A stretch of 616 bases of DNA from Escherichia coli (GTDB taxonomy: Bacteria > Pseudomonadota > Gammaproteobacteria > Enterobacterales > Enterobacteriaceae): the NCBI RefSeq assembly GCF_003334255.1, contig NZ_QOWU01000209.1. One strand, given 5' to 3'. The translations under genes and the position numbers were made by a program. This document shows positions 1 through 616 of the stretch, piece by piece. The notes under the pieces are model-generated. The model was not told the DNA's origin and did no database searches. It was given only the letters and a program-made list of their open reading frames with translations. Within the stretch, counting starts at the first letter, position 1. The number at the start of each line of letters is the position of its first letter.

Positions 1-616
1 CCTGAATCAGACGGCCCAATTCATCATATTCCCGGCGCAATTCCAGCCCGTCAGGCCCGGTGGCTGACGTTAACTGGCTGTGGTGGTTATAGTAAAACGC
101 CGATGCCCTGCCATCCGGCGTGGTGATGCGCGTGATGAGGCCCGTCACCACATCCGGACTGTATTCTGTTGTCCTGCCTGCGGCATCCGTCTGTGCCCTG
201 AGCCTGCCCACCGCGTCAAACTGACTCTGCGTGACGCTGCCGTCCGCGTGTTCCTTTTTCACCACCCGCTTCAGCCCGCCTTCACCCTGCGTGTGCAGGA
301 CTTCACGGCGGTTCAGGCTGTCGGTGATGGTGATGCGGTCCTTCTCATACTGATACGTGTAACTTAAGCCTGCCGGGTTTAGCTGTTCTGTCACCCGCCC
401 GTCGCTGTCGTAACGGTAACAGATTTCCGGTCGGCCCGTGTGACGGTGCGCCACCATCCGGCCCCGGTATTTATCATCGTAAGTAAAGCTGCGCACCTGT
501 GTATTGCTGCGGTCATACACCGCCGCCAGTTCGCCGCGGGGCGTCCAGCCATAGCGCACCAGCGGCGCGGCAGGTAAATTCTCCGGGTATTCCGGGTCGT
601 GCGTCAGCCACACGGC
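1..616 (-). CDS. Rhs family YD-repeat core protein, internal fragment (both ends outside window; first complete codon is 616..614, last is 4..2)
   Basis: Seen in sequence: the reverse-complement frame starting at 616 is open for all 205 codons. The translation contains YD-repeat motifs typical of Rhs cores (VYDRSNTQVRSFTYDD, YRYDSDGRVTEQLNPAGLSYTY, FDAVGRLRAQTDAAGRTTEY, YDELGRLIQ) and xDG turn motifs (HADGS, TPDGR, GPDGL). GC is about 61% and third-position GC about 72%. From memory, not a search: the peptide closely resembles the N-terminal part of E. coli Rhs core proteins, but I cannot assign a paralog (rhsA to rhsE) and so give no gene symbol. Confidence 0.93.

Follow-up and report, generated by a model that had tools for sequence, protein, structure and literature searches.

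The Rhs elements of Escherichia coli have been known for decades, and a stretch of DNA that falls inside one of them raises a question for anyone annotating such a fragment: how far can one go, from an internal piece of the gene, in naming the family, the chromosomal locus, and the toxin that the complete gene carries? Here, the piece (hereafter the window, that is, the whole stretch that was analysed) comprises 616 bases with a GC content of 0.61.

Coding strand and gene family

Translation of the minus strand gives a single stop-free frame of 205 codons, which is read from position 616 (codon 1 being nucleotides 614–616), spans the entire window, and is open past both of its ends. No stop or frameshift is found in this frame, both other minus frames contain many stops, and the longest ORF on the plus strand encodes 95 amino acids (ORF 80–367). 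In 616 bases at 61% GC, an open frame of 205 codons is by itself modest to weak evidence, because 37 of 2,000 dinucleotide-preserving shuffles reach the same length in one of their six frames. Long open frames are thus not rare at such a composition, and one might ask whether this one is a chance product of GC-rich DNA, or whether the true gene is ORF 80–367 on the plus strand. We give this reading practically no weight, as it is already refuted by the match of the translated frame to the NCBIfam profile RHS_core (NF041261; E = 1.5e-120, collinear, profile positions 301–505 of 1,261) and by the 99.7% identity of the DNA to annotated rhs genes, and RefSeq annotates nothing on the opposite strand at the inspected rhs loci. 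The GC content by codon position (0.62/0.48/0.72) fits coding in the minus frame. Judged from sequence, it is homology and protein content, rather than frame length, that settle its coding status.

Other kinds of feature were also considered. As a gene, ORF 80–367 was rejected: its best NCBIfam match (E = 0.038) lies far under the cutoff, and PADLOC assigns it to no family. A search of both strands of the window against Rfam at E <= 1 returned no structured RNA family, and the internal DNA repeats in the window amount to one 19-nt pair (79% identity) and one 15-nt inverted pair, which are consistent with chance or with an echo of the repeat-coding sequence.

The window scores 403.9 bits against NF041261, or about 2.0 bits per position, and falls under the whole-protein cutoff of 2,000 bits because it is a 205-aa fragment; the full-length RhsC protein of E. 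coli K-12, with 2,683.5 bits against the same cutoff, reaches about 2.1 bits per position. The YD_repeat profile (TIGR01643) matches the window peptide with E = 3e-15 and 56 bits (cutoff 15.8), the best stretch being amino acids 117–152. The Pfam family RHS_repeat (PF05593) matches four times, in each case with E <= 4.5e-5, so that the tandem RHS/YD repeats by which the family is recognized are present according to both PF05593 and TIGR01643. All four repeats lie on the minus strand. The first (aa 69–100, YRYDSDGRV..., E = 5e-6, also seen in the motif map) corresponds to positions 317–412, and the second (aa 133–171, FDAVGRL..., E = 8e-8) to positions 104–220. The third (aa 158–190, positions 47–145, E = 1.8e-5) overlaps its neighbours in the repeat register, and the fourth (aa 176–204, EYDELGRLIQ, positions 5–91, E = 4.5e-5) is truncated by the end of the window. 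The preliminary description, made from the letters alone, had placed the window inside an Rhs core on the strength of a 205-codon stop-free minus frame with repeated YD-type motifs, and had proposed a profile HMM search as a check; the translation, the four significant repeats, the matches to RHS_core, YD_repeat, and RHS_repeat, and a DNA identity of 99.5–99.7% to E. coli rhsC all agree with that placement.

Within E. coli, sequences of this kind are common. By megablast, 3,885 of 5,426 complete genomes (about 72%) have a match to the window, with a median of three copies per genome and roughly 12,000 core copies in all, and the best matches (99.7%) are annotated as rhsC or as RHS core protein. 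When compared with the K-12 paralogs, the window is 99.5% identical to rhsC, 96.6% to both rhsA and rhsB, and 74.8% to rhsD, and all these alignments are in frame. It corresponds to codons 293–497 of the 1,397-codon K-12 rhsC (21–36% of the protein), in keeping with the earlier suggestion that the peptide resembled the N-terminal third of a core of roughly 1400 aa, and to codons 297–501 of rhsD. Although the RhsD/RhsE subfamily shares its architecture and repeat register with the window, the DNA identity of just 74.8% leaves the window outside that subfamily; a divergence of a few percent from rhsA, rhsB, and rhsC, versus more than 20% from rhsD, places it in the rhsA/B/C subfamily.

The closest K-12 protein, RhsC (b0700, WP_000015200.1), shares 613 of 616 bases and 203 of 205 residues with the window, as well as the frame, the position, and the YD repeats. 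The three substitutions are at positions 18, 38, and 40, where the window has the rhsA/rhsB state, and the only residue changes are I193L and W200L, with both leucines of the window being the residues of rhsA/B. Conversely, RhsA and RhsB of K-12, which belong to the same core subfamily, agree with the window at positions 18, 38, and 40 and differ from it at 21 sites between positions 78 and 539.

From the open frame, the identity to rhsC, and the RHS_core profile, it is almost certain that the window (positions 1–616, minus strand) is an internal 616-bp piece of an E. coli-type rhs core of the rhsA/rhsB/rhsC subfamily, closest to rhsC. It codes for the cage wall and not for the toxin; the Rhs-associated core domain (TIGR03696) occupies residues 1170–1247 of full-length K-12 RhsC. 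The feature is a member of a well-known gene family, and the finding as such is already known.

A mosaic core and the locus of the source gene

No exact copy of the window exists in the 5,426 complete E. coli genomes, in 100,044 species-representative genomes, or in the JGI metagenomes. The exact search used a 121-base pattern (window positions 10–130), which occurs in none of the species-representative genomes and in seven metagenome contigs, none of which is 100% identical over all 616 bases; the best of these, contig L012, has two mismatches. Megablast searches of the complete E. coli genomes with the whole window and with positions 1–130 likewise returned no copy identical across 616 bases.

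Within the window, 24 sites separate K-12 rhsA from rhsC, and the window does not side with one gene throughout: the 21 sites from 78 to 539 are rhsC-type, and the three at 18, 38, and 40 are rhsA/B-type. Gene conversion between paralogous cores would account most simply for this pattern; the switch point, judging from the three low-end sites, would lie between positions 40 and 78 (no strand assigned). Besides the SNP tables, this placement draws on contig L012, in which an rhsC-type patch covers gene nucleotides 954–1415 and gives way to rhsA-type sequence just where the window does.

Two readings of the source gene then have to be weighed. We lean tentatively, at a little under even confidence, toward a gene at the rhsC locus (ybfA/kdp to ybfB) with the 150-aa cysteine-rich RhsC tip (ETLKCIKPLHS...), followed by the small membrane protein YbfB. 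Positions 78–616 are identical to rhsC of K-12 and of strains G4/9, 74-2, and 300709, and the best whole-window matches, G4/9 and 74-2 (two mismatches each, at 38 and 40), are rhsC-locus genes that end in the RhsC tip and are followed by ybfB. However, positions 38 and 40 differ from the window in all four inspected rhsC-locus copies and agree with it in rhsA/B-type genes, and positions 1–130 are matched exactly by five complete genomes, all annotated rhsB, of which two were inspected, D2 with the gene at the rhsA locus and Ec-RL2-1X with the gene at the rhsB locus. Neither is an rhsC-type sequence confined to the rhsC locus, since strain CFSAN061761 has an rhsC-type core over the window at its rhsA locus, nor does the rhsC locus guarantee the RhsC tip, strain 300709 having a different tip there.

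The alternative is a gene at the rhsA or rhsB locus that took up an rhsC-type patch through gene conversion and would carry the RhsA tip with yibA, or some other non-RhsC tip; we regard it as possible and rate it slightly lower. Contig L012 is the closest precedent, being 99.4% identical to the K-12 yibF–rhsA locus over 5.6 kb and combining an RhsA tip with the shared switch point and only two differences from the window, and CFSAN061761 is a second case of an rhsC-type core at the rhsA locus. Yet L012 departs from the window at 421 and 431, two sites at which the window has the rhsC state, and the support comes from the three low-end sites only, of which position 18 is polymorphic among rhsC alleles (G4/9). 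It is because only these three sites inform the choice, one of them polymorphic, that both readings stay below an even chance. As the core is a recombination mosaic, the window does not fix the tip or the chromosomal locus, even with the rhsC locus as the reading toward which we lean.

Two observations from this comparison deserve the attention of annotators. The gene that RefSeq names rhsB in strain D2 is located at the rhsA locus and has the RhsA tip and yibA; names given to Rhs paralogs from core similarity can therefore mislead. Contigs L012 (OVAE01000011) and L013 (OSBX01000007), with low coverage of about 2.9 and 2.7, respectively, come from marine metagenomes; where they align with rhs loci of E. 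coli K-12 the identity is about 98–99%, and they look like E. coli DNA that reached the marine samples via contamination or sewage rather than DNA of a marine organism.

Junctions, tips, and immunity genes to the left of the window

Aligned with the window, the K-12 rhsC gene reads from right to left. Its core-to-tip junction, PISNIDPLGL (RhsC residues 1238–1247), ends 2,249 bp beyond position 1, and its stop codon, at 2,702 bp, shares bases with the ybfB start (ATGTAATG). We read leftward from the window in 16 related copies. The strict PxxxxDPxGL motif is present in 12 of the 16: in 11 full-size copies it ends at 2,249 bp, and in strain 74-2 it ends at 1,646 bp because of the core deletion in that strain. 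At the full-size distance, three other copies show the variant PVQYIDSMGL, and the remaining one, contig L014, stops early. The distance from position 1 to the end of the motif or its variant is thus 2,249 bp in every full-size relative; the coding sequence stops, and the immunity gene begins, at about 2.65–2.75 kb. In the anatomy of the relatives, then, the junction, tip, and immunity gene would lie about 2.2–2.8 kb beyond position 1.

A change in composition marks the same boundary. The GC content of the relatives is 0.61 in the core, 0.37–0.41 in the tips, and 0.31–0.34 in the immunity genes, with the neighbouring kdp genes at 0.56, and the gene directly downstream of the tip is ybfB, yibA, yhhH, ybfC, or yibG. 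The main predictions that the preliminary description had made for this flank are therefore borne out in the relatives: a gene running right to left with its tip beyond position 1 (as in the K-12 and G4/9 loci), a PxxxxDPxGL boundary or a variant of it, an AT-richer tip followed by a small ORF, and a window that is conserved scaffold only, with the toxin and immunity module outside it on the left. The distance that it gave, 2.5 to 3 kb, needs to be divided, as it fits the stop codon and immunity gene and overshoots the junction, which is about 0.3 kb nearer.

The tips themselves are diverse. Inspected cores at least 96.6% identical to the window carry five unrelated tips, so that the window says nothing about which toxin is attached. 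The five are the RhsC tip (150 aa) with ybfB; the RhsA tip (130 aa) with yibA; the RhsB tip (164 aa) with yhhH; a tip before ybfC, found in K-12 as an orphan module, which strain 300709 and contigs L011 and L013 have fused to the main core; and a 162-aa tip in contig L009, where the alignment with the K-12 yibJ–yibG orphan region is 98.8% identical. RhsA and RhsB of K-12 thus differ from RhsC in both tip and immunity gene. Since all five tips exist in K-12 as main or orphan modules, the sample contains no new tip. The window itself offers no positive evidence for one either, and we consider it quite improbable that the source gene is a recombinant with a hitherto undescribed toxin tip and immunity pair, about 2.25–2.8 kb left of the window.

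For the rhsC locus, the tip (K-12 locus L001, 4302–4751) has 150 aa with nine cysteines and is without a long hydrophobic segment, and YbfB (L001, 3973–4299) has 108 aa with several strongly hydrophobic stretches and is likely an inner-membrane protein. A membrane-embedded immunity protein hints at an RhsC toxin that acts on the envelope or membrane. Searches of RhsC residues 1248–1397 and of YbfB found no family in Pfam, NCBIfam, or PADLOC, and a reading of either as part of a defence system was rejected after PADLOC returned no match. A literature search on the pair ybfB and rhsC turned up incidental mentions only.

The K-12 rhsC locus contains a 1,045-bp direct repeat (L001, 2884–3927 and 4755–5798; 97.2% identity; spacing 1,871 bp), of which one copy forms the 3' end of the rhsC core and the other is what remains of the core in the orphan downstream. 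In strain 300709 (L007), exactly one 1,871-bp unit is deleted, with the result that the RhsC tip and ybfB are lost and the core is fused to the pre-ybfC orphan tip; in strain G4/9 (L002), the same unit is duplicated, so that the tip and ybfB are both present twice. The two strains show the reciprocal outcomes of unequal recombination, and tip displacement can be seen in them directly. At the rhsA locus, contigs L009 and L014 have the main core joined straight to K-12 yibJ–yibG orphan sequence (98.8% and 97.7% identity, respectively); L009 holds an intact gene with a yibJ-type tip, L014 ends before the junction, and the arrangement looks like the same displacement process as at the rhsC locus.

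Some of the inspected copies are damaged elsewhere in the gene, and the source gene could therefore be a pseudogene, that is, a disrupted or decaying rhs copy (through an insertion sequence, an internal deletion, or a frameshift) with no functional toxin. There are several examples among the relatives: in CFSAN061761 (L008, 2504–3666), an IS3 element cuts the RhsA tip 23 residues past the junction; in D2 (L016, 8264–9633), IS150 removes the 5' end of the gene and joins it to the glyS region; in strain 74-2 (L006), 603 bp are missing from the core without loss of frame; and metagenome contig L014 stops early. We nevertheless think it unlikely for the present gene, as the majority of inspected copies are intact and the window, with its unbroken frame, departs from K-12 RhsC only by the two leucines that it has in common with rhsA/B. 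The deletion in strain 74-2 removes 201 codons of the YD-repeat shell to give an RhsC of 1,196 aa and corresponds to about 5684–6286 of the K-12 locus (L001), roughly 0.7–1.3 kb left of the window. At its breakpoint, two alignment blocks overlap by 17 bases, which suggests a short direct repeat there.

The encoded cage and the meaning of the fragment

What would the encoded piece do in the complete protein? A sequence search with the window peptide against solved Rhs cages finds Tse5 as the best match (8cp6, E = 4.6e-31, window aa 12–153), along with the chains 8h8a, 8qjd, 8uxt, 7pq5, and 7q97. By homology with these structures, the window is predicted to form part of the beta-cage (shell) fold that encloses the toxin. 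Among them, Tse5 of P. aeruginosa, Rhs1/Tre23 of Photorhabdus (7pq5), RhsA of P. protegens (7q97), and Tse15 (8uxt) have a YD-repeat shell homologous to the window. These solved cages are distant in sequence and differ from E. coli RhsC in their toxins and their N-terminal secretion adaptors; moreover, their dependence on type VI secretion is experimental.

The published structures suggest how the parts may work together, and the cage, the cleavage mechanism, and the delivery route are inferred from them. The consecutive YD repeats of the window would fold into beta-hairpins that make up an early part of the Rhs cage wall, and the cage would enclose the C-terminal toxin domain as in the solved Rhs effectors. 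An aspartyl-protease plug at the PxxxxDPxGL junction (RhsC residues 1238–1247) would free the toxin, and a second self-cleavage near RhsC residue 48 (PVNPLLG...GE) may remove a short N-terminal piece and open the other end of the cage. The small immunity gene right after the toxin tip would protect the producer. In Photorhabdus Rhs1, the cage and two aspartyl self-cleavages have been shown experimentally (PMC8636562). The Tse5 shell chain starts exactly at the residue that aligns with RhsC residue 48 (PVNPLLGAKVLPGE), its N-terminal cleavage motif aligning with the same site, and DUF6531 covers residues 46–123 of K-12 RhsC (E = 3e-18), a region that includes the site at about residue 48.

How the rhsA/B/C proteins are delivered is a separate matter. 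In a region outside the window, the N-terminus of K-12 RhsC, PAAR_motif gives a marginal match (E = 0.14, 19 residues, 2–20), and we did not accept it as a PAAR domain. No vgrG or eag gene is found beside rhsC, rhsA, or rhsB at the K-12 loci. Delivery of this subfamily by type VI secretion would thus seem not to be supported by the PAAR and neighbour-gene tests.

The modular organization has been described before. The C-terminal domains of Rhs proteins act as toxins, against which the downstream gene encodes a neutralising product, and the PxxxxDPxGL boundary, the Rhs-CT/RhsI toxin–immunity pairs, and the orphan modules that serve as an exchange reservoir are all on record (PMC3150448). The same work sets out the likeness to CdiA toxins, which likewise combine a conserved delivery part, a short boundary motif (VENN versus PxxxxDPxGL), and a C-terminal toxin that varies with an immunity gene and with orphan modules farther downstream (PMC3150448). 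CdiA belongs to an unrelated family, however, with filamentous haemagglutinin repeats and two-partner secretion, and the window has no similarity to it.

As a fragment of conserved scaffold, the window is ordinary. The biology of note lies outside it, for example, in the uncharacterised RhsC tip with its membrane partner YbfB, and the only route to novelty would be a tip not yet described on the left flank. For annotation and scanning, the practical lesson is that a piece of an Rhs core is enough to name the family with certainty, but not the paralog locus or the attached toxin, because the cores are gene-conversion mosaics and the tips are swapped by recombination with downstream orphan modules.
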